Source: Rhizodiscina lignyota (Eukaryota). Taken from it: a stretch of DNA of 64,000 bases. Shown here piece after piece: positions 44,670 through 57,788 of the stretch. The stretch covers positions 1,240,001 to 1,304,000 of the forward strand of contig ML978129.1 in NCBI GenBank assembly GCA_010015805.1. The letters are read 5' to 3'. The notes below the pieces were generated by a model that did not search any database, was not told the DNA's origin, and saw nothing but the letters and a program-made list of their open reading frames with translations. A program made the position numbers and the translations under genes. Numbering within the stretch: position 1 is the stretch's first letter; each line of letters starts with the position of its first letter.

Positions 44670-45312
44670 TGTTGCTATCTCCAGACCATTATGTGGATAA
44701 GCGCGGCACTGGTGATTGTGAGAAAATAAAGGCCAAGTTGGAGGACGTTTGTGGAATAAGATCAAGATCGGGTATAGGATAGCGTAGGCAGCACAAATTA
44801 CGATGGGCTCAACGTCGGCAGCGTCTACCTAATCTTCTGATAGGGCATGCAGTTTCCGATTGACCAGGACGGAGAGGAGCCGTCTTTGCCGGATTCGGAG
44901 ACCGCATTTTACTTTTGGGGAAGGTCTTGTGCGACGCTCGTACGTATTTCGTAGAATTTCAGAGCATGGCCGATCACCGGCGTAAGCGCTCTCGGCTATG
45001 GGAACAGGCTCCTTTATGCGATCGCATTTACCGTCGGTTTGAAGTCGTAGAGGCATGAAGACATTCAGATTGATAATAGAGAAGCAACTTGCAGTATCAA
45101 AGCCATATCCACGCTAAGACTAATTTGGAAGGAGTTCTGATACCGCAATACCTTACTATTGTGAGGGTCTGTGCACGCACTAAACGCCTTCGGGTTACCT
45201 TAATGTTGTTTCTAGTCAGTTAGTCGCGTGTCGTCACCATTCGCGTGAGTCGAGCTTCGAGACCTCACTATTTATCGGTGATATTCACCATGTGAGGCGC
45301 CAAGCAGAACCA

Positions 45313-47955
45313 ATGGCCAGTCCGGCGAAGAAGCGGAAGAAGAACGATTTTCAAAGCTCCCCACAGGCCATCCACAGCCTCGACTATTTCTTCTCCAAGC
45401 AGCAGAATGCAGCAAATAGCTCGACACCGAAATCGAGCGACGATACCGTCGGCGGTAGCGCGGTGGCACAGAGCGAGAATAACCCCGAGGAAAGTCATCT
45501 GTTAGCGGATGAGGAGCTTGCCCGCAAGCTTCAGCAGGAGTGGGACGAGGAAGCTGCGAGGCGTGATGTGGCCGTTCGAGGAGATGAAGATGACAACGTC
45601 GGTGGAGCTACATTCGGACAAGAGAATGGTGGAAAAATTGCGGACGTCGAAGATGCCCCTGTCCCAGGAGCAACTCCTCTAGATTCGCGAACTGAGGCTC
45701 CAAGCAATTCAAATGCTGCGAAGCAGACGCTCTCACTTCAATCCGTAGCTACCGACGAGGATACCGCGTGCGCCAATGTACCCTTTGACGAGAGTCCTCT
45801 CACCTTCGATCCCTCGAAATACATTCCAGGCCTCCAGCGCCTCTGGGAATCGGACGGAGGACATGCGACCTATGCGCTCCTCACGAGATGCTTCGTCCTG
45901 GTGAACAGCACCACAAGCCGCATAAAGATCGTCGACACGCTAGTGAACTTACTAAGGACAATCATCGAAGGCGATCCTGAGAGTCTTGTTCCTGCTGTGT
46001 GGCTTGCGACGAATTCGATATCTCCTCCGTACATTGACCTCGAGCTCGGCTTGGGCGGATCCGCAATATCCAAGGCCTTGAAGAAAGTATGCGGATTGGA
46101 CAATGCTGGGCTGAAAACATTGTTCAACAAATACGGGGATGCTGGCGATGTAGCGTTCGAGGCGAAGAAGAGGCAGTCATTCACATTGCGCAAGCCGAAG
46201 CCTCTCACAATCAGAACCGTGTATGATTCCCTGGTCAAGATCGCCAATAGCAAAGGCACTGGTAGTCAAGAGGTCAAGCAGAGGATAGTTGAAAGACTGC
46301 TACAAGATGCAAGAGGTGCAGAGGAGAGCAGGTACATTGTGAGGACACTTGTGCAGCATCTTCGGATTGGCGCTGTTAAAACGACTATGCTTATTGCGCT
46401 GTCTCGAGCGTTTTTGCTCTCTCGGCCATCGGGTGCTACGTTTCCAATCCGGCTACAAGAGGAATTGAAGGCGCTGAAAAAGGAGCAATTGGCGGAGATT
46501 TATTCGAAGAATGAGGAGATTGTAAAGGCATGTTTCGCTCGACGACCTAACTACAATGATATAGTGCCGACGCTACTCGAAATCGGCGTTTGCGACGAGT
46601 TGCTCCTCCGCTGTGGATTGGCACTGCACATCCCGCTTAGACCAATGCTGGGTAGCATTACTAGAGACCTCGGCGAAATGCTGACCAAACTACAAGGCCG
46701 TGACTTTAGCTGCGAATACAAGTACGATGGCCAGCGTGCCCAAGTGCACTGCGACGAGAATGGCAAGGTGACAATCTTCTCCCGCCATTTAGAAGTTATG
46801 ACTGAGAAATATCCGGACCTTGTTGCCCTCGTTCCTCAAATCCGTGGCGAAGGGGTCAGCAGCTTCATCCTTGAAGGCGAAGTTGTTGCAATCGACAAGA
46901 CGAACGGAGACCTGAAGCCTTTCCAAGTTCTGTCGAATCGAGCTCGCAAGGATGTTGTCATCGCAAGTGTGACAATAGATGTGTGCTTGTTCGCGTTCGA
47001 CCTCATGTACCTGAATGGTGAAGAATTGCTTGATCGGCCTTTCCGCGAGCGAAGGAATCTGCTCCGCAGCCTTTTCGTCGAGATCCCGCATCATTTCACA
47101 TGGGTGAAGAGTTTGGACGCAACGTCGGCAGAGTCAGAAGCAGTGCTGGAATTCTTCAAGAGCGCAACAGACGTCAAGTGCGAAGGCATCATGGTCAAAG
47201 TCCTTGACAATCATGTCGAAAGTCTCGAGAACGAGAGTGAAACAAACGGCCAGCACGGCATGGATGGAGCTGTTCCTCAGACTCCGAGAAAGTCGAAGAA
47301 GGCGTCTAAGAAGGCGCAGGCTCGTTCTGAGGCTGATACCGCCGAAACTGGGAAATCATCCCGTCGGAAGGCTCTTCTTGCCACATACGAACCGGACAAA
47401 CGGCTCGATTCCTGGCTAAAAGTCAAGAAAGATTACAATACCTCGGCCGATACTATCGATCTCATTCCCGTCGCCGGCTGGCATGGTCTAGGACGAAAGA
47501 ATAAATGGTGGTCCCCGATCCTACTAGCTGTTCGAAATCCCGAAACAGGATGTCTCGAAGCTGTGACTAAATGCATATCCGGTTTCACGGACAAGTTCTA
47601 CCAAGCCAATCGCGAGAAATACGATCCTGACACCGGTGAAAATGTTATCTCCAAGCCAGCATATGTCGAATATGCGGGTAACCCGGAGGTGTGGTTCGAG
47701 CCACAGGAGGTTTGGGAAATGGCGTTTGCGGATATCACGCTGAGCCCGACATATACTGCCGCTATTGGACTTGTTAGCGAGGAAAGAGGCCTCAGCCTGA
47801 GATTTCCGAGATTTTTGAAGGTGAGAGAGGATAAGAGTATTGATGAAGCAAGCACCGCGGACTTTCTGGCGGAACTGTACAGGAAGCAGGAGGCCAGAGC
47901 AGTGAAGGAAGGTGATGCAGGAAAGGAGGATGCCAACGTAGAGGAAGAGGAATGA
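45313..47955 (+). CDS. ATP-dependent DNA ligase, Lig1-family paralogue (Adl1-like rather than Cdc9)
   Basis: Adenylation motif EYKYDGQRAQ, EGEVV, FAFDLMYLNG, EGIMVK, WLKVKKDY, SLRFPRF; intronless. Confidence 0.93.
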   Translation: MASPAKKRKKNDFQSSPQAIHSLDYFFSKQQNAANSSTPKSSDDTVGGSAVAQSENNPEESHLLADEELARKLQQEWDEEAARRDVAVRGDEDDNVGGATFGQENGGKIADVEDAPVPGATPLDSRTEAPSNSNAAKQTLSLQSVATDEDTACANVPFDESPLTFDPSKYIPGLQRLWESDGGHATYALLTRCFVLVNSTTSRIKIVDTLVNLLRTIIEGDPESLVPAVWLATNSISPPYIDLELGLGGSAISKALKKVCGLDNAGLKTLFNKYGDAGDVAFEAKKRQSFTLRKPKPLTIRTVYDSLVKIANSKGTGSQEVKQRIVERLLQDARGAEESRYIVRTLVQHLRIGAVKTTMLIALSRAFLLSRPSGATFPIRLQEELKALKKEQLAEIYSKNEEIVKACFARRPNYNDIVPTLLEIGVCDELLLRCGLALHIPLRPMLGSITRDLGEMLTKLQGRDFSCEYKYDGQRAQVHCDENGKVTIFSRHLEVMTEKYPDLVALVPQIRGEGVSSFILEGEVVAIDKTNGDLKPFQVLSNRARKDVVIASVTIDVCLFAFDLMYLNGEELLDRPFRERRNLLRSLFVEIPHHFTWVKSLDATSAESEAVLEFFKSATDVKCEGIMVKVLDNHVESLENESETNGQHGMDGAVPQTPRKSKKASKKAQARSEADTAETGKSSRRKALLATYEPDKRLDSWLKVKKDYNTSADTIDLIPVAGWHGLGRKNKWWSPILLAVRNPETGCLEAVTKCISGFTDKFYQANREKYDPDTGENVISKPAYVEYAGNPEVWFEPQEVWEMAFADITLSPTYTAAIGLVSEERGLSLRFPRFLKVREDKSIDEASTADFLAELYRKQEARAVKEGDAGKEDANVEEEE

Positions 47956-50053: not shown

Positions 50054-51061
50054 CTAAAACTTTTCCAAGGCAGGCCTCATATCCAACTCATGCGTCCACA
50101 GACATGGCTCTTGTCCGTGGAGGAACAAGTATGTCTTGCCCACCGCCTCGGCGCTCATTTGCTTTCCGATTTTCTGCGCTTCACCATTCTCATCTCTGAT
50201 CGGACCATTGGCGATGGTATGCGCTACATGAATACCTTTCTCGCTCATCTCACGAGCAAGAGTCTGAGCAAGTTGTCGAACGCTGGCGCGCCCAGCGCCA
50301 TATGCGGCATATTGAGCGCTGCAGCGGAGGGCACCGAGAGTTCCAGTGAAGATGAGCGTCTGACGATCTTAGTCGATGGCATTGTCATGGCTAGGCAAGG
50401 AGCGGCTGATGGCATTTGAAATGCCATGAGAGCGCTCTGGATAAGAGAACCAAAACTTACCCCTTTCTTTTCCGCTCCTTCGGCCAAGGGAGTCTCCCCA
50501 TGATCAACAAAGAATCGTTTCAGAGACTCCTGAGCGAAGACGAAAGCTCCGCCAACATACGTTTCAAGCGATTGCGTAAAATCCTTCGAGAGTAAGTCAG
50601 AACCTCATTTGTACGCAGATGAATGAGAATGCATTGTACCAACATACCTCGAAGGTCTCTTCCATGAACGGCTTTTTACTGCTATGCTTGACGCTGAAGA
50701 TCGCCATACGGAGTTTGAGACCCTTTAGTCGCTCATGCTGCTTGATGGCTTCGAACGTCTTTGCCAGCGAAGCTGGGGATGTGTCTGTAGGGAATGTCTC
50801 GAACGTTGCACCAGGAACAGACGATTCCAACGACTGTTTGAGCTGCTTAAGCGGCTCTTCGCGTCTCGCAAGTAGCGCCACGGCAAAGTTGCCGTGAGAT
50901 GGATGAGCTAGGATGCGTGCTATTCCAGCACCCTACGAGAGGAGTTACGGACCAATTCATGTACATACAATTTCGCAAGTTCATCAAGTGTATGCAAGAT
51001 AGGTATCACTTACAGTCGATGGTCCAGCTCCTATGAGAATTGCTAAACCTGTGGGAGCCAT
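50054..51061 (-). CDS. Short-chain dehydrogenase/reductase (atypical, YxxxR)
   Basis: ILIGAGPST|GAGIAR Rossmann motif, VALLARR, GTLIFTGTLGALR..YAAYGAGRASVRQLAQTLAREMSEKGIHVAH; three introns. Confidence 0.85.
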
Positions 51062-51824
51062 GACAAGTGATTTCCTCTATGTAGAGTCTTAGAATGATCG
51101 ATTGAAACTTTCGAAAGTGGGAATATCATCATAGAGCCGGTTCAAGGGTTAGGGTTGCGTTGGTTACCTACTTAACTCCGGTAATCCCCCCCGAGGTCAA
51201 CCCACTCGGCTGTGAGATTGTATTGTGTACAAACCCGAGCTCAGGTTGACGAGGCTTCTGCTCCAAGTTCAACCATAGTTACGCAACAGTTTAATAGAGA
51301 AAGGCCCTTCTTCGACAACAGCAGCACCATACATTGCACATACGTGCATGTTGCAGTACAGCCTTCATCCAGAAAAGTGCACAAGGTCCGAGGTTCCATT
51401 GCTGAGGGTTTATAGCTTCCGCTGACTCAAGGGGCGCTGCTCTCAGATCCTGTTTCTTTGGCTGTTGCCCTTCTTCTATCTCGTGAAACTTCTGCGTGAA
51501 GTTGGATCATTCAAACCGTTGCTCTTCTTTCATGAAAGCGAGACTGTATGCAAGATATGCCGACTGTCTTGTGCTTGAGTTAAGAAGGCCCCCTATTCCT
51601 GGAACCAGACGGGTGCTCATACAAGTGGGTGCATGACCGCCTGTGACGATGGGTGCGGAGATACCCATTGGTACGGGCACATAGGTACCTGGAATTGGGT
51701 GCTCTGTCGACACAAGGTTCGAATCATCATCTGTATTCACCTTGTTCGACGCAAAACACATGTGGAATGGGCACGGTATTGTATAGAGAAGAAGATGTAT
51801 TCAAGACTATCTAATTTACATACT

Positions 51825-51898
51825 GAGTTCGTCTTGGTTTCACCCCGAAGGGCTACTCACACCGGACAGCACGTGAAGCTGCGAACTCGTCGTCCGGC
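51825..51898 (-). ncRNA. HDV-like (CPEB3-type) self-cleaving ribozyme
   Basis: Minus-strand RNA GCCGGAC GAC GAGUUCGC AGC UUCACGU GCU GUCCGGU GU G AGUA GCCC UUCG GGGU GAA ACCAA GA CGAACUC. It gives a 7-bp P1 with G1.U wobble, an 8-bp P2 with one bulged A, a 3-bp P3, L3 UUCACGU, a single-pair P1.1, P4 with UUCG loop, and J4/2 A-C-C-A-A with putative catalytic C at 51837. Confidence 0.88.
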
Positions 51899-52447
51899 AT
51901 GCAGAGGGTTGATAGAGGGACCGTACCAGCCGGTGTGCATACCAACCCTCCGCACCTAGCGTATTTCAGGGAGCGGTCAGGGCTAAAGCCGAGCAGACGT
52001 GCACCTTACTTACTAGCAAAAAAACAAAAACGCCAGCGCCATGCAGAGGATTGACAGAGGGACCGTACCAGCCGGTGTCATGCCAAACCTTCCGCATCTA
52101 GCGTATTTCAGGGAGCGGTCAGGGCTAAAGCCGAGCAGACGTCACCTTACTTACTAGCTTGACGCGACACCAAACGCCAAAAGCAAGAAAGCAAAAACTC
52201 CAAAACACCAAAACACCAAACGCCAGAAAGCAAGAAAGCAAAAACTCCAAAACGCCAAAATGCCAAAACACCAAACGCCAAAAAGCAAGAAAGCAAGAAA
52301 GCAAAAACGCCAAAACGCCAGCGCCATGCAGAGGAAAGGCAGAGGGAAACCGTAAAAGCCGGTGTGCATGCCAAACCTTCCACATCCAACGCTTTTCAGG
52401 GAGCGGTCAGGGCGAAAGCCGAGCAGACGTGCACCTTACTTGCTGGC
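51898..52447 (-). repeat. Three imperfect tandem copies of a ~120-nt double-hairpin unit (51898-52017, 52040-52158, 52325-52447)
   Basis: Shared core TTCAGGGAGCGGTCAGGGC(T/G)AAAGCCGAGCAGACGT and CATGCAGAGG ends on the + strand; G.U pairs indicate the minus strand is the folded RNA. Confidence 0.92.
52159..52324. repeat. Low-complexity spacer of irregular 7-9 nt modules (AAAGCAAG, CAAAACGC, CAAAACAC, AAAAACTC)
   Basis: Directly visible; almost no T on + strand. Confidence 0.9.
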
Positions 52448-52469
52448 GTGCGCAACACCCAAAAGAAAG

Positions 52470-52748
52470 TCAGTACTCACCTCGAAAGTCGATCACGTCG
52501 ACAGCCTTGTGGCCGCCAGTGACCCTCCTCAACCTCGCCGGAATCGAGTCGTCCGGCATCACCCCCTGCTGCTCGCCGATGTGGCGGTAGATCGCCGCCG
52601 CCGTCTCGGTGTCGAATTTGGTGTCGTAGTGCTGTCGGAGCCACCCCTTCCGTTCTCGCTCCATCGCCCACGCGTCGTGGGCCTTTCGTGCTCGGCGTCG
52701 GTCGGCGCGCTTGGCGAGCCACAGGCGGAAACGTCTGATGACGTTCAT
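52470..52748 (-). CDS. Orphan 92-aa Arg/Trp-rich basic protein (may instead splice at GTGAGT 52480)
   Basis: ATG in CAACATG context 126 nt below a TATA box; MNVIRRFRLWLAKRADRRRARKAHDAWAMERERKGWLRQHY...; G+C 160/240 by hand count over 52501-52740, visibly above the flanks. Confidence 0.6.
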   Translation of the reverse strand: MNVIRRFRLWLAKRADRRRARKAHDAWAMERERKGWLRQHYDTKFDTETAAAIYRHIGEQQGVMPDDSIPARLRRVTGGHKAVDVIDFRGEY

Positions 52749-52829
52749 GTTGATTGTTATGATTGTTGAGTTTGATGGATGAAAAAAATGCTTGCAAGTC
52801 AACGAGTACGGTTGCTGCAAGTGAAGAGT

Positions 52830-52920
52830 TCTAGAGAAAAAGAAAGAGGGAGATGGGAGGGAGGGAAAGGCCCCTTTATAGTCGGGCGGGAGCAGGTCGC
52901 AACCACATGTAATCACATGT
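52830..52920 (-). promoter_or_regulatory. Pol II core promoter for the orphan ORF/ribozyme module
   Basis: TATAAAG at 52880-52874, followed by a CT-rich box (CCTTTCCCTCCCTCCCATCTCCCTCTTTCTTTTTCTC); upstream direct repeat CACATGT-aat-CACATGT (52904-52920). Confidence 0.6.
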
Positions 52921-53414
52921 ACGATTGCCTCCTCTCCCTTCTCTGATGACTTGCCTCTGTGTGATACGTCCCAACATGAATAATTGCGGGATTATAAAGT
53001 CGTTGGCCGCCAACACGGCTGTAACTCTCAACGGCTAATAGCTCTTCCACCTCACAGGAATCGAGACTACCTCTGAAAGTTCAATTGGATATTCTCTGGA
53101 GAGTATTAAACAACAGCAGGAGACAGAAAAACTTGTATCCTACGTTATCTATAGAGGCTGTACATAGGTGCTGGCCAGCAGTATTGGCAAAAGTCCATGT
53201 CCTTTCAAGACAGATCAGATCTGTTGAGTCCAAAACGGTGAACCTGCGGAGAATTGGACTGGACTGGACTGGTCGGACTTGATCGATCTTAACGGTGCTG
53301 CTTATTCAATCGAATTCGATAAAAGTTCGTTGGTATCAAGGCGTTGAGTTGCGGGATGTGAGCGATTTCCGGCAAGCGCACGAGACATGCAACGGCGTCC
53401 GTGTTCTGTGACAT

Positions 53415-53710
53415 CGAGAAGCAAATCTTCTAAGCCAGAGTGGACAAGCTACCCCCTGATAATCCCGAACACAAACTTATCGCAAGCGTATAAGGTATGT
53501 ACCGAGGTCTCTCTTCCACGACAACGAGAAGCGAATCTTCTGTGGTGGGCAAAGCAAGCTACTCCCCAGCAAATTCGAATGCAAACTCATCGCAAGCGTA
53601 TGATATTTGTAACGAGGTCTCTTTTCCATGATAACGAGAAGCGAATGTTCTAAGGCAGGTTGGCCAAGCTGCTCCCCAACCCCCTCGAATGCAACTTCAC
53701 AGACGCGAGA
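53415..53710. repeat. Degenerate 110-bp tandem repeat, ~2.7 copies
   Basis: CGAGAAGC(A/G)AAT(C/G)TTCT recurs at 53415, 53525 and 53635; CAAGCT recurs with the same period, and ATCGCAAGCGTAT and CGAGGTCTCT occur in copies 1 and 2. Confidence 0.85.
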
Positions 53711-56232: not shown

Positions 56233-57788
56233 CTAGTCGAGCGCTATCGCCGGCTTCGCGAAAGGGTGATAGTCCGCCTCGCCGGCATTCTCCCATTGCG
56301 CTTCCCACAGCGACTCATTCATCTGCGATTCCTCCATACCAGCAATGACGTGCCTAATAAGGTCAGCATCTTGGATCTGAGGATCTGGATGGTGGACTGA
56401 CTCATCTGGAGCCAGGACTTCCAGTCCGGGCACACAATCGATCAGCGCAACTATTACGTACGTCCCCACAAAGCTCCATGTGAATCCAATCAGCGCCTCC
56501 ACTATCTGGATCCAGAGCTGCTTCACATTTCCGTCGAAGAAGACACCTCCATCGATGATAGTGGCCCCATCAAAGGCGGCCACTTCTTTCTTTGCAAACA
56601 GCCCCGTCGCGATGGTTCCAAGGAATCCACCAATGCAGTGCGTGGCGAAAGTGTCGCCATTGTCGACCCAGCGCCAGCGTCTAGCCCAGTCTGTGAACTT
56701 TATTCGCAGTGCTTGTCTGCAAACGAGAGCCCCACCAACACCGAAGAAGAAGCTAGTGGTCAGGTCAATGAACCCTGCAGATGGAGTTATCAAGACGAGC
56801 CCGGCGATTGCGCCCATGAATGTGGAGTCTAGACTCCAAAGGCCTGTTTCGAAATATGTGATCAGAACCCATGTAATTGCGCCGGCTGATGCGCATAGAT
56901 TCGTCACGCAGAGTGCCATAACGCTCTTAAAGTTCAAGGCCAGCGTAGTACCAGCGTCGAACGCCAACCAACTCCCCCAAATTATTACCATTGCCAAAAT
57001 CTGGGCCATGGAATTGTGGGGGCGGTGCAGCTTCAAATGGTTTGGAGTGCGATTCGACAATCTTCGGGATCTTGCGATAGGCCAGGAGAGATAGAGCGAT
57101 AGTGCTGTCGCTGTTGCACCAGAGCAAATGTGCACTGGAGTGCCGCCTGCAAAGTCAAGCGCCCCGAGATTCCCCAAGAAGCCGGTGTCCGACCATACCA
57201 TATGGGCAAGCGGACAATATATGAGCGTTGACCAGAGGAAAATGAACGGCACCAAGCTGATGAGCCGGCCGCGCTCGCACGCTCCACCAACTGCGATGGC
57301 GCAGACTGTGGCTTCAAAGATGAGCTGGAACTCGGAGAAGAGAATGGCGGGGATGGTGCCAACGGGCTCAGCAAGAACATTACGATGGAAAACGAATGTG
57401 AAGTCCCCAAAGACACCATTGCTACTGTCGCTGTAGGCCAGTGTGTAGCCAAGGATCCACCATTGGATGCTGCAGACGCCGATTGAGAGCATGGCGGGCA
57501 TGAAGGAAGCGAGACCGGAGCGGCGAGTCGAGTAGCCTGCGTACTGTATCCCAGAATCGTCATAAGGAATCAGAGCAAAACGTACTTGGAACGGACTCTT
57601 GAAGGCGGAAACTTACGGCAAGGCCAACTGCTGGGATGATGCTGTCGTGTTATGTTGTGAGTAGGCTGAGATGAGTGCAGAAGGTACTTGGATTCTTACG
57701 GCCAACAAAAGACGCTTGCAGCTAGGACAAACAGAGTGTCTGTCTTAGAGCATCGTTCCCAAGCTTCGAGGATGGATGATACTGCCAT
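56233..57788 (-). CDS. Ammonium transporter (Amt/Mep family)
   Basis: QWW.LGYTLAY, GGACERGR, YCPLAHMVW, DFAGGTPVH, AIAGLV.ITPSAGF, FATHCIGG, GLFA; short 5' exons from ATG 57788. Confidence 0.93.

Follow-up and report, generated by a model that had tools for sequence, protein, structure and literature searches.

A proposed tandemly repeated leader beside a predicted fungal-variant HDV-like ribozyme in Rhizodiscina lignyota

A 64,000-nt stretch of the Rhizodiscina lignyota genome (assembly GCA_010015805.1, contig ML978129.1, positions 1,240,001 to 1,304,000; hereafter the window, in whose numbering all coordinates are given) carries on its minus strand a predicted HDV-like self-cleaving ribozyme (51825-51898) and, directly upstream of it, a tandem array of three units of about 120 bases each. 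Upstream of the array lies an orphan ORF of 89 codons (52483-52749, minus strand), which ends at a 5' splice-site-like GTGAGT and has a TATAAA nearby (about 52880-52875). Judged by these signals, the region is a possible start of a putative transcript holding both the units and the ribozyme. The orphan ORF matched no Pfam family, had no homologue among proteins of 48-156 residues nor, at E up to 0.001, among 1.84 billion representatives, and gave no usable Atlas match. An ordinary short-chain dehydrogenase gene begins about 760 nt downstream of the ribozyme. None of the nine ORFs of at least 70 aa scanned between the flanking genes matched a Pfam family, reverse transcriptase and retroelement families included, and no tRNA or tmRNA was found. 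At gathering score the window as a whole had no Rfam match, and at E up to 10 the interval 51300-53100 returned a single chance-level lncRNA match on the other strand.

The ribozyme is predicted to cut between 51899 (U-1) and 51898 (G+1, or G1). P1 (51898-51892 with 51867-51861; 7 bp) begins at +1, and P2 pairs 51888-51882 with 51831-51825. An extra C (51881) stands between P2, which ends at 51882, and the 3-bp P3, which starts at 51880 (51880-51878 with 51870-51868), encloses L3 (51877-51871) and abuts P1'. Loop E, formed by AGUA (51857-51854) and GAA (51841-51839), lies around P4 (51853-51842; GCCC-UUCG-GGGU, with a UUCG loop), and the candidate catalytic C is at 51837. The resulting order P1, P2, P3, L3, P3', P1', P4, J4/2, P2' is that of a nested double pseudoknot. 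Also, A25-C26 can pair with G39-U40 as P1.1, and J4/2 reads C62-C63-A64-A65, that is C-N-R-A, before P2'. A P1.1 between L3 and the bases after P1', together with a J4/2 C in the C-N-R-A context, are the defining contexts of HDV-like ribozymes.

A strict descriptor restricted to Watson-Crick helices, composed after the sequence had been seen and demanding both the P1.1 pairing and the J4/2 context, found 51898 on the minus strand as its sole match in the window; in 60 shuffled windows it matched once, and there never with loop E. It replaced an earlier loose descriptor that was unspecific, with 22 matches in the window versus a mean of 19 in 40 shuffles. The window holds no second copy of the ribozyme or of its flank. 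Rfam 15 recognised the ribozyme neither at gathering score nor at E up to 10, and its 22-nt P4 stretch had no match in bacterial and archaeal genome contigs. A metagenome scan with a 24-position core pattern returned six loci, three of them the same sequence; in all six the 5' strand of P3 and a closed P4 with loop E were missing. Judged by its architecture, the segment is an HDV-like ribozyme of the fungal variant class, with predicted self-cleavage, a reaction that in HDV-like ribozymes yields a 2',3'-cyclic phosphate and a 5'-OH.

The three minus-strand units described in the first-pass annotation were recovered by BLAST, with identities of 93% (copies 1 and 2), 83% (1 and 3) and 86% (2 and 3) and E values from 1e-30 to 1e-45. 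Copy 1 (51899-52017) adjoins the ribozyme; copy 2 (52041-52159) lies near the inferred centre of the three copies, from which it differs by single-base indels only; and copy 3 (52326-52447) is the most diverged, with 13 substitutions from the centre. No further copies occur elsewhere in the 64-kb window. The short, T-rich spacer from copy 2 to copy 1 (52018-52040) reads GGCGCTGGCG followed by T runs (repeat family D5). That from copy 3 to copy 2 (52160-52325) also begins with GGCGCTGGCG, its start aligning with the shorter spacer, and continues as a T/G-rich microsatellite (repeat family D1) with an 8-nt period and higher-order periods of 39-63 nt (TRF rows covering 52167-52320). All copies end in ...CUCUGCAUG, and the earlier observation that their similarity stops within 1 nt of the predicted cut, at CAUG, was borne out. 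The sequence that follows CAUG in copies 2 and 3 (GCGCUGGCG and the T/G-rich microsatellite) is absent both upstream of copy 3 and downstream of the ribozyme. A search of sequencing runs found the stretch in one DNA run and in no RNA run. The DNA run may itself be the source of the assembly; its four contigs cover the array with no differences, but they break at the repeats and none spans the array.

Three further candidates for the nature of the array were tried and rejected. Local alignment of the units to the ribozyme, as if they were degenerate copies of it, gave scores reached by 982, 1059 and 1948 of 2000 shuffles, and alignment of the spacers, as if they held ribozyme remnants, gave scores reached by 920 and 327 of 1000. 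A continuation of the array past the ribozyme, as expected of an insertion, was not seen: GCGCTGGCGTTTT, with up to two mismatches, occurs only at the two spacer starts and at three unrelated sites. The 12-mer ATGCCGGACGAC spans the cut (51889-51900, minus strand) and recurs exactly, on the same strand, inside the orphan ORF (52548-52559), the starts being 659 nt apart with 647 nt and all three units in between; 16 of 2000 shuffles reach the score of this repeat. An unrelated 13-mer repeat also lies in the same 2.1 kb.

The 3' half of each unit is predicted to form a hairpin, hairpin 2, which in copy 1 (51955-51899) has a perfect outer stem of 16 bp that reaches position -1 of the cut with its last base. 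Folded alone, it reaches -31.3 kcal/mol in copy 1 (z -4.31, with 0 of 200 shuffles as good), -23.7 kcal/mol in copy 2 (z -2.67) and -18.5 kcal/mol in copy 3 (z -1.55), so that its stability declines with distance from the ribozyme. Copies 2 and 3 carry an A.C mismatch and a bulged U, and copy 3 has two further U.U mismatches. The other strand folds to -23.7, -16.5 and -13.5 kcal/mol, the ribozyme's strand being better by 5-7.6 kcal/mol in all three copies. The six copy-1-specific changes all fall in the 32 columns, out of 119, that form the 16-bp stem (chance 52/200000), and the gain in stability that they bring to the inferred centre is matched by one of 5000 random change sets, the polarity from centre to copy 1 being an assumption. 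Under the reverse polarity, a decay of hairpin 2 to -22.8 kcal/mol is unremarkable (876/5000), and with the structure derived from the centre no more pairs are retained on the branch to copy 1 than expected (61255/100000).

Hairpin 2 is also predicted to influence pairing across the cut. In nearest-neighbour predictions without pseudoknots, the probability that bases -1 to -3 are bound to the ribozyme side is 0.93-0.98 when the 5' arm of hairpin 2 is left out and falls to 0.01-0.09 when hairpin 2 is present. With the whole unit present, -1 and -2 still pair with the ribozyme side at 0.49 and 0.38. Within the unit, hairpin 2 alone is credible as an RNA structure.

The reading that we put forward, and which we judge to be evenly poised between right and wrong, is that the units arose locally, by tandem duplication at the DNA level, from the leader of a fungal-variant HDV-like ribozyme, about 120 nt long, in which only hairpin 2 is structured and has an insulating or capping role. 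The array looks like a duplicated ribozyme leader and not like a new structured RNA because only the copy adjoining the cut keeps a perfect hairpin. An origin at the DNA level is favoured since a microsatellite of 8-nt period lies between copies, the spacers align, and the nine ORFs revealed neither a reverse transcriptase nor any other retroelement protein. The segment directly 5' of the ribozyme would have been duplicated in tandem, and the microsatellite would have grown between the duplicated copies. The proximal hairpin 2 would lock up bases -1 to -16, which if unlocked would extend P1 into bases needed for P1.1, and its role would be that of P(-1), a helix in the 5' flank of the HDV ribozyme. 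After cleavage, the 5' product would have a blunt, hairpin-capped end with a 2',3'-cyclic phosphate. Copies 2 and 3, with weaker hairpins and no ribozyme behind them, would be relics or at most spare leader modules.

Several points count against leader duplication. A DNA-level process alone gives no reason for an array that stops within 1 nt of the cut; breakage where the 16-bp inverted repeat has its base would be a guess at the cause. Also, the predicted fold of the whole unit leaves -1 and -2 paired with the ribozyme side about half of the time, and the direction of change towards copy 1 is assumed, the opposite decay being unremarkable. The near-invariant 48-nt interior of the 5' half of the unit, described in the first pass as hairpin 1, is likewise left unexplained.

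This interior (alignment columns 8-55) shows one substitution and one deletion among the copies. Of the two hairpins ascribed to each unit, hairpin 2 beats its shuffles, whereas hairpin 1 folds no better than them (z +1.07, +0.84 and +1.43; 176, 163 and 189 of 200 shuffles fold as well). It is conceivable, although doubtful, that hairpin 1 is a short spliceosomal intron or derives from one, so that the unit would consist of an intron and a mini-exon. The signals and spacings can be read directly from copies 1 and 2, where GTAAGT is followed by CTGAC and by a TAG about 21 nt after the branch A, over about 57 nt. In addition, the loop-E-like AGUA belongs to the 5' splice-site consensus, GTAAGT also opens a putative intron that follows the start codon of the dehydrogenase gene, and the want of thermodynamic support for hairpin 1 agrees with an intron. 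So does copy 3, in which the GT of column 7 and the AG of column 62 are gone and GTAAGG is found, with a new AG lying 5 nt upstream. However, no frame is kept across the units, the 'exon' part contains indels of 1-2 nt, and an intron interior better conserved than its exon would be unusual.

The coincidence of array end and cut invites two explanations that involve RNA. In the first, which we regard as unlikely, the ribozyme side is the newcomer: an R2/RTE/L1Tc-like sequence, its RNA starting at G+1, would have inserted in or next to an older minisatellite of units and spacers and would thus have interrupted the array exactly at the first base of the ribozyme. Retroelements that bear an HDV-like ribozyme at the 5' end have their 5' junction at its cleavage site (excerpts of PMC3774820 and PMC3185411), and the fungal variant, with about 230 copies in 26 species and variable gene associations (excerpt of PMC5640933), would suit a dispersed element, as would the recurrence of the cut-spanning 12-mer some 650 nt upstream in the same orientation. 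Yet downstream of the ribozyme there is no reverse transcriptase ORF, tail or array continuation, and the ordinary dehydrogenase gene begins there about 760 nt further on. Moreover, neither the ribozyme nor its flank has a second copy in the window, and a perfect hairpin abutting -1 would be a coincidence.

In the second, the upstream RNA itself would be the source of the repeats. R2 enzymes jump between templates, and the first-pass annotation had proposed that template jumping by a reverse transcriptase gave rise to the duplications. The 5' cleavage product, ending in ...CUCUGCAU with a cyclic phosphate, would be copied by a reverse transcriptase and put back into the genome, through template jumping or target-primed synthesis, and the 3' end of the RNA would become the DNA repeat boundary. 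Such a process, which we consider improbable, would account for the end base that all three copies share, which lies within 1 nt of the cut and where a DNA-only process has no built-in reason to stop, and R2 and L1Tc retrotransposons are described in abstracts as carrying HDV-like ribozymes at their 5' ends. No positive evidence for template jumping emerged, however: the nine ORFs between the flanking genes have no reverse transcriptase or retroelement match, the spacers hold no ribozyme remnants, and the bases after CAUG in copies 2 and 3 (GCGCTGGCG and the microsatellite) have no source upstream or downstream. These bases occur nowhere else in the window, so that neither a target site nor the 5' end of that RNA can be recognised in them. 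Also, the intron-like segment is retained in the units, and no clear target-site duplication surrounds single units. A broader form, in which the ribozyme makes a hairpin-capped upstream RNA whose end is written back into DNA, the units being RNA-mediated copies or ATGCCGGACGAC marking an insertion or second substrate site, is held to be just as improbable.

It is more doubtful still that each unit is a working structured RNA module of two hairpins and a loop E, with selection keeping both helices in all copies. The sequence features behind this proposal hold in the alignment. The base of hairpin 1 is CUAGU/GCUAG in copies 1 and 2 and CCAGC/GUUGG in copy 3, altered with pairing kept; AGUA...GAA flanking AGG/CCU is invariant; and the top of hairpin 2 reads GGUA/UAUC, GGCA/UGUC and GGCA/UGCC in copies 1, 2 and 3. 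Two pairs (columns 4/62 and 79/109) change on both sides with pairing kept, and all six one-sided changes are compatible, but 56 of 500 column shuffles do as well, which is not significant, in a test of little power because there are only three sequences, all of them paralogous. Covariation is not supportable from three paralogues. RIP, which would leave only C-to-T or G-to-A transitions between copies, was rejected as the origin of the 'compensatory' transitions: six of the 18 differences between copies 1 and 3 are transversions, and the five transitions between copies 1 and 2 go in both directions.

Paired columns vary more than unpaired ones (13/72 vs 5/51 with substitutions). After its 13 substitutions copy 3 keeps 33 of 35 pairs, and a mutational null on two structures not derived from copy 3 (4842/100000 and 2615/100000) weakly supports pair retention, with p about 0.03-0.05; given at least eight changes in paired columns the figure is 375/52558. 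All of these selection tests are post hoc and concern three paralogous copies. Against a module, the fold of hairpin 1 is outdone by its shuffles in every copy, three pairs of hairpin 2 are lost and a bulge is added in copies 2 and 3, Rfam has no match even at E up to 10, and the 64 kb contain no further copy. The claim of selection on structure was sustained to some degree for hairpin 2, by its shuffle z, its strand bias, the placement of the copy-1 changes in the stem and pair retention in copy 3; the column-shuffle control speaks against it, and hairpin 1 has no support from its folding energies.

Least probable are SINE-like retroposed plus-strand copies whose A-rich tails grew into the microsatellite: a plus-strand A-rich tract follows every unit (about 23, 166 and 20 nt) and all units share one 5' end, but the hairpin is 5-7.6 kcal/mol weaker on that strand, a tRNA-like head or gene, another copy in the window and a Pfam match in the nine intergenic ORFs, as expected of a SINE or non-LTR retroelement, are all lacking, and it would be a matter of chance alone that the common end matches the cut of a ribozyme on the other strand.

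At present, the locus adds one more case to a described ribozyme class, next to an ordinary tandem duplication. It offers a testable arrangement, in which a perfect hairpin abuts the cut and two decaying paralogues serve as natural mutants, and could show whether fungal HDV-variant ribozymes depend on an upstream insulating helix and whether the 5' products that they release persist as stable RNAs. Were the repeat boundary made by RNA, it would link ribozyme cleavage to local genome duplication, and write-back of RNA, if true, would be a route for a self-cleaving ribozyme to shape the repeats of its own locus.

The fungal HDV variants were described by Li & Breaker (2017, BMC Genomics; PMC5640933), in about 230 copies from 26 species with 'widely variable gene associations', and section 7 of that paper gives their biological role as unknown. 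In the excerpts of the paper used here, loop E partly replaces P4, one additional nucleotide, mostly C, stands between P2 and P3, and a C-G pair is 'typically' found at the cleavage site. The present ribozyme shares the layout, the loop E in P4, the extra C and the cut at the base of P1, and its window likewise contains fungal-type genes and introns. Of the three published hallmarks it thus has two, the loop E and the extra C. Where the first P1 pair is typically G-C, it has G1.U38, a G.U pair that fits the general Y-R consensus and does not bar membership, since the paper says 'typically'. The same excerpts describe neither an upstream hairpin nor tandem leader repeats, both of which are present here, and no report of either at fungal HDV variants was found in a literature search that lay outside the Stockholm alignments of PMC5640933.

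In the R2 (PMC3774820) and L1Tc (PMC3185411, PMC4035085) retrotransposons, HDV-like ribozymes sit at the 5' ends and, according to the parts of PMC3774820 and PMC3185411 used, the 5' junction of the element is the cleavage site. There, as at the present locus, the cut is a sequence boundary visible in DNA. In those elements a retrotransposon body follows, whereas here the ribozyme stands without body, reverse transcriptase ORF or tail, and the repeated part is the upstream side and not the element. A parallel to hairpin 2 in its proposed role is P(-1) of the genomic HDV ribozyme. In the portion of PMC6097654 used, this upstream hairpin of 54 nt restores activity by blocking an alternative helix. 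In both cases, here by prediction, a self-contained hairpin in the 5' flank is set against inhibitory alternative pairing. The competitor in HDV, Alt1, uses the 3' part of the ribozyme, while the competitor predicted here would lengthen P1 with bases -1 to -3, and, unlike P(-1) as described there, the hairpin of R. lignyota ends exactly at -1.

The 74 nt that follow copy 1, the most downstream of three tandem minus-strand units, match the topology of the HDV ribozyme helix by helix (51898-51825, minus strand). P1 (GCCGGAC/GUCCGGU) opens with the pair G1.U38, P2 is GAGUUCG/CGAACUC, P3 (AGC/GCU) encloses a 7-nt L3, P1.1 has two pairs, P4 (GCCC-UUCG-GGGU) carries AGUA and GAA on its flanks, and J4/2 offers a C-C-A-A context immediately 5' of the P2 3' strand. 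A loose descriptor of this architecture was not specific, with 22 matches in the window and a mean of 19 in shuffles. A strict one, requiring Watson-Crick helices and composed with the sequence already seen, recovered this single site in the window and matched once in 60 shuffled windows (0 matches with the loop-E pattern). Rfam returned no match to the ribozyme or the units, either for the whole window at the gathering score or for 51300-53100 at E up to 10. A metagenome scan for the ribozyme core pattern yielded six loci, all chance-like, and a prokaryote genome scan with the P4 stretch yielded 0 matches.

According to the passages of Li & Breaker 2017 (PMC5640933) that describe it, a fungal HDV variant with 230 representatives in 26 fungal species has P4 replaced in part by loop E and one additional nucleotide, mostly C, at the P2-P3 junction, and two examples were demonstrated to cleave in vitro; a 2026 preprint reports that four more predicted variants, all from one fungus, cleave as well. 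Since a loop E and the additional C (51881) both occur in the present ribozyme, it is classed by its sequence features as a further member of this variant, with a predicted cut between 51899 and 51898, although its first pair is G.U where the same source gives C-G as typical at the cut.

The units, each of about 120 nt, are arranged 5' to 3' on the minus strand as copy 3 (52447-52326), copy 2 (52159-52041) and copy 1 (52017-51899), followed by unique sequence. BLAST identities are 93% for copies 1 and 2, 83% for 1 and 3 and 86% for 2 and 3 (E 1e-30 to 1e-45), and no additional copy was found within the 64-kb window. The 166-nt spacer between copies 3 and 2 starts with GGCGCTGGCG, after which it is a T/G-rich microsatellite with an 8-nt period; the 23-nt spacer between copies 2 and 1 can be aligned to its start. 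Contigs from one public DNA run, which may be the assembly's own data, tile the array with no differences and break at the repeats. Pol III stop-like runs of 4-7 T occur on the minus strand within about 10 nt after copies 2 and 3 (52018-52040, 52300-52325), and may be just microsatellite; after copy 1 the ribozyme stands in place of a T run. All units share sequence through CAUG, one base beyond the predicted cut, and the first-pass annotation was correct in placing the end of the array similarity at the cleavage site.

Each unit had also been proposed to fold into two hairpins under selection; hairpin 1 lies in its 5' half and hairpin 2, with a 16-bp outer stem in copy 1, in its 3' half. The structure drawn is the minimum-energy fold of copy 1. 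Hairpin 2 reaches -31.3 kcal/mol in copy 1 (z -4.31; 0/200 shuffles as good), -23.7 in copy 2 (z -2.67; 0/200) and -18.5 in copy 3 (z -1.55; 14/200). Hairpin 1, at about -11 kcal/mol in every copy, is less stable than most shuffles (z +1.07, +0.84 and +1.43 in copies 1, 2 and 3). Because of its G.U pairs, hairpin 2 is 5-7.6 kcal/mol more stable on the minus than on the plus strand in all copies, and the structure is therefore assigned to the ribozyme's strand. Judged by these folding models, the hairpin 2 that adjoins the cut is a real structure and probably has a function; hairpin 1 is a weak candidate for a structure.

Compensatory changes had been claimed as evidence of selection, and in the 36-pair structure two pairs do differ at both positions: pair 4/62 in copy 3, and pair 79/109 when copy 1 is compared with copies 2-3. 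Six further pairs carry one-sided changes, all compatible. Three others are disrupted, by an A.C mismatch at 71/116 in both copy 2 and copy 3 and by U.U mismatches at 74/113 and 75/112 in copy 3; a bulged U is present in copies 2-3, and the double changes were matched in 56 of 500 column-shuffle trials, which is not significant. The observation was accurate but left out the contrary evidence, and the covariation claim is weak.

The relationships among the copies are star-shaped: copy 2 sits at the centre (0 substitutions, single-base indels only), the copy 1 branch has five transitions and one deletion, and the copy 3 branch has seven transitions and six transversions. Under a mutational null that kept the kinds of change but placed them at random, the retention by copy 3 of 33/35 pairs of a structure derived from the inferred centre sequence was reached in 4842/100000 draws, and in 375/52558 given at least 8 paired-column hits; with a copy-2-derived structure the counts were 2615/100000 and 347/67918. 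For the copy 1 branch, scored on a structure not derived from copy 1, pair retention was not significant (61255/100000). All six copy 1 changes map to the 32 columns that make up the hairpin 2 stem (chance: 52/200000), and applied to the centre they give a hairpin 2 stability equalled by 1/5000 random change sets; in the reverse polarity, from copy 1 to the centre, the stability loss is unremarkable (876/5000). At most, these tests, picked post hoc and based on three paralogues, are suggestive of pairing in hairpin 2 and at the 5-bp base of hairpin 1. The structure model does not account for the 48-nt interior of hairpin 1 being almost invariant across copies, nor for paired columns being more variable (13/72) than unpaired ones (5/51).

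Another reading, suggested by sequence motifs, is that the hairpin 1 segment is a short fungal-type intron. Copies 1 and 2 contain GTAAGT, a CTGAC branch-site-like motif and a TAG about 21 nt past the branch A, for a total of about 57 nt, and the AGUA of the loop E proposed in hairpin 1 falls within the 5' splice-site consensus. In copy 3 the GT and AG are both gone, with GTAAGG and a new AG a few bases inward, and the four substitutions that remove them are the set described as compensatory.

That the array should end where the ribozyme is predicted to cut needs explaining. DNA-level duplication is the preferred origin, since the spacers are microsatellite and a Pfam scan of nine intergenic ORFs found no retroelement protein; for the boundary it would need a further assumption, for example that the DNA broke at the foot of the 16-bp inverted repeat. 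A ribozyme-headed element that inserted into an older minisatellite would account for the boundary, as published for R2 and L1Tc, but nothing element-like lies downstream of the ribozyme. Template jumping during reverse transcription of the 5' cleavage product, as first suggested, accounts for the boundary and nothing more, and is unsupported: the bases after CAUG in copies 2-3 are absent elsewhere in the window, the spacers hold no ribozyme remnant, and the same nine ORFs argue against it, leaving a small chance that the boundary was RNA-made. Plus-strand retroposed, SINE-like copies, a reading allowed by the A-rich tract after each unit on that strand, are opposed by the weaker plus-strand hairpin 2 and by the failure to find a tRNA-like head.

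The 12-mer ATGCCGGACGAC, which spans the cut, has exact copies at 51889-51900 and 52548-52559 (minus strand), about 650 nt apart in the same orientation, the upstream one inside an orphan ORF and all three units between them. Its score was reached in 16/2000 shuffles; the recurrence may be accidental, or the 12-mer may mark a target-site duplication or supply another substrate strand for P1. An unrelated 13-mer, TGTATGCAAGATA, serves as a yardstick: it occurs at 50989-51001, in the presumed first intron of a dehydrogenase gene, and about 550 nt upstream at 51545-51557, so such repeats do arise by chance in the same 2.1 kb.

The orphan ORF (52749-52483, minus strand) precedes copy 3, encodes 89 codons of basic character, has GTGAGT at its end and lies downstream of a TATA-like box (TATAAA, at about 52880-52875). 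Pfam assigns it to no family, three protein searches returned no relative, and it may be non-coding. About 1 kb upstream of it, in the same gene-free gap, is a second tandem repeat, at 53372-53694, with 2.4 copies of an approximately 110-nt unit that are 72-74% alike. Pfam identifies ordinary fungal-type genes near the locus, encoding RMI1, a Fringe-like protein and a short-chain dehydrogenase (ATG at 51060, minus strand, about 760 nt downstream). By eye, the long ORFs 45184-47955 (plus strand; KYDGQR motif in translation) and 56233-57612 (minus strand) resemble an ATP-dependent DNA ligase and an ammonium transporter, respectively.

In folds computed without pseudoknots, the 3' arm of hairpin 2 alone leaves bases -1 to -3 paired with the bases after P1' (probability 0.93-0.98), the site that P1.1 has to occupy. 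This pairing falls to 0.01-0.09 once the complete hairpin is included, and with the whole unit it is 0.49 (-1), 0.38 (-2) and 0.10 (-3). Hairpin 2 of copy 1 would shield the ribozyme from this mispairing, and the 5' product would end after cleavage in a blunt 16-bp hairpin; by modelling and analogy, this is its most likely function, and copies 2 and 3 would then be duplicates with no ribozyme behind them. According to PMC6097654, the P(-1) hairpin in the 5' flank of the HDV ribozyme blocks an alternative helix and restores activity, and hairpin 2 is similarly predicted to block mispairing by upstream bases. The locus offers a neat natural setting in which to examine how leader structure affects ribozymes of the fungal HDV variant.
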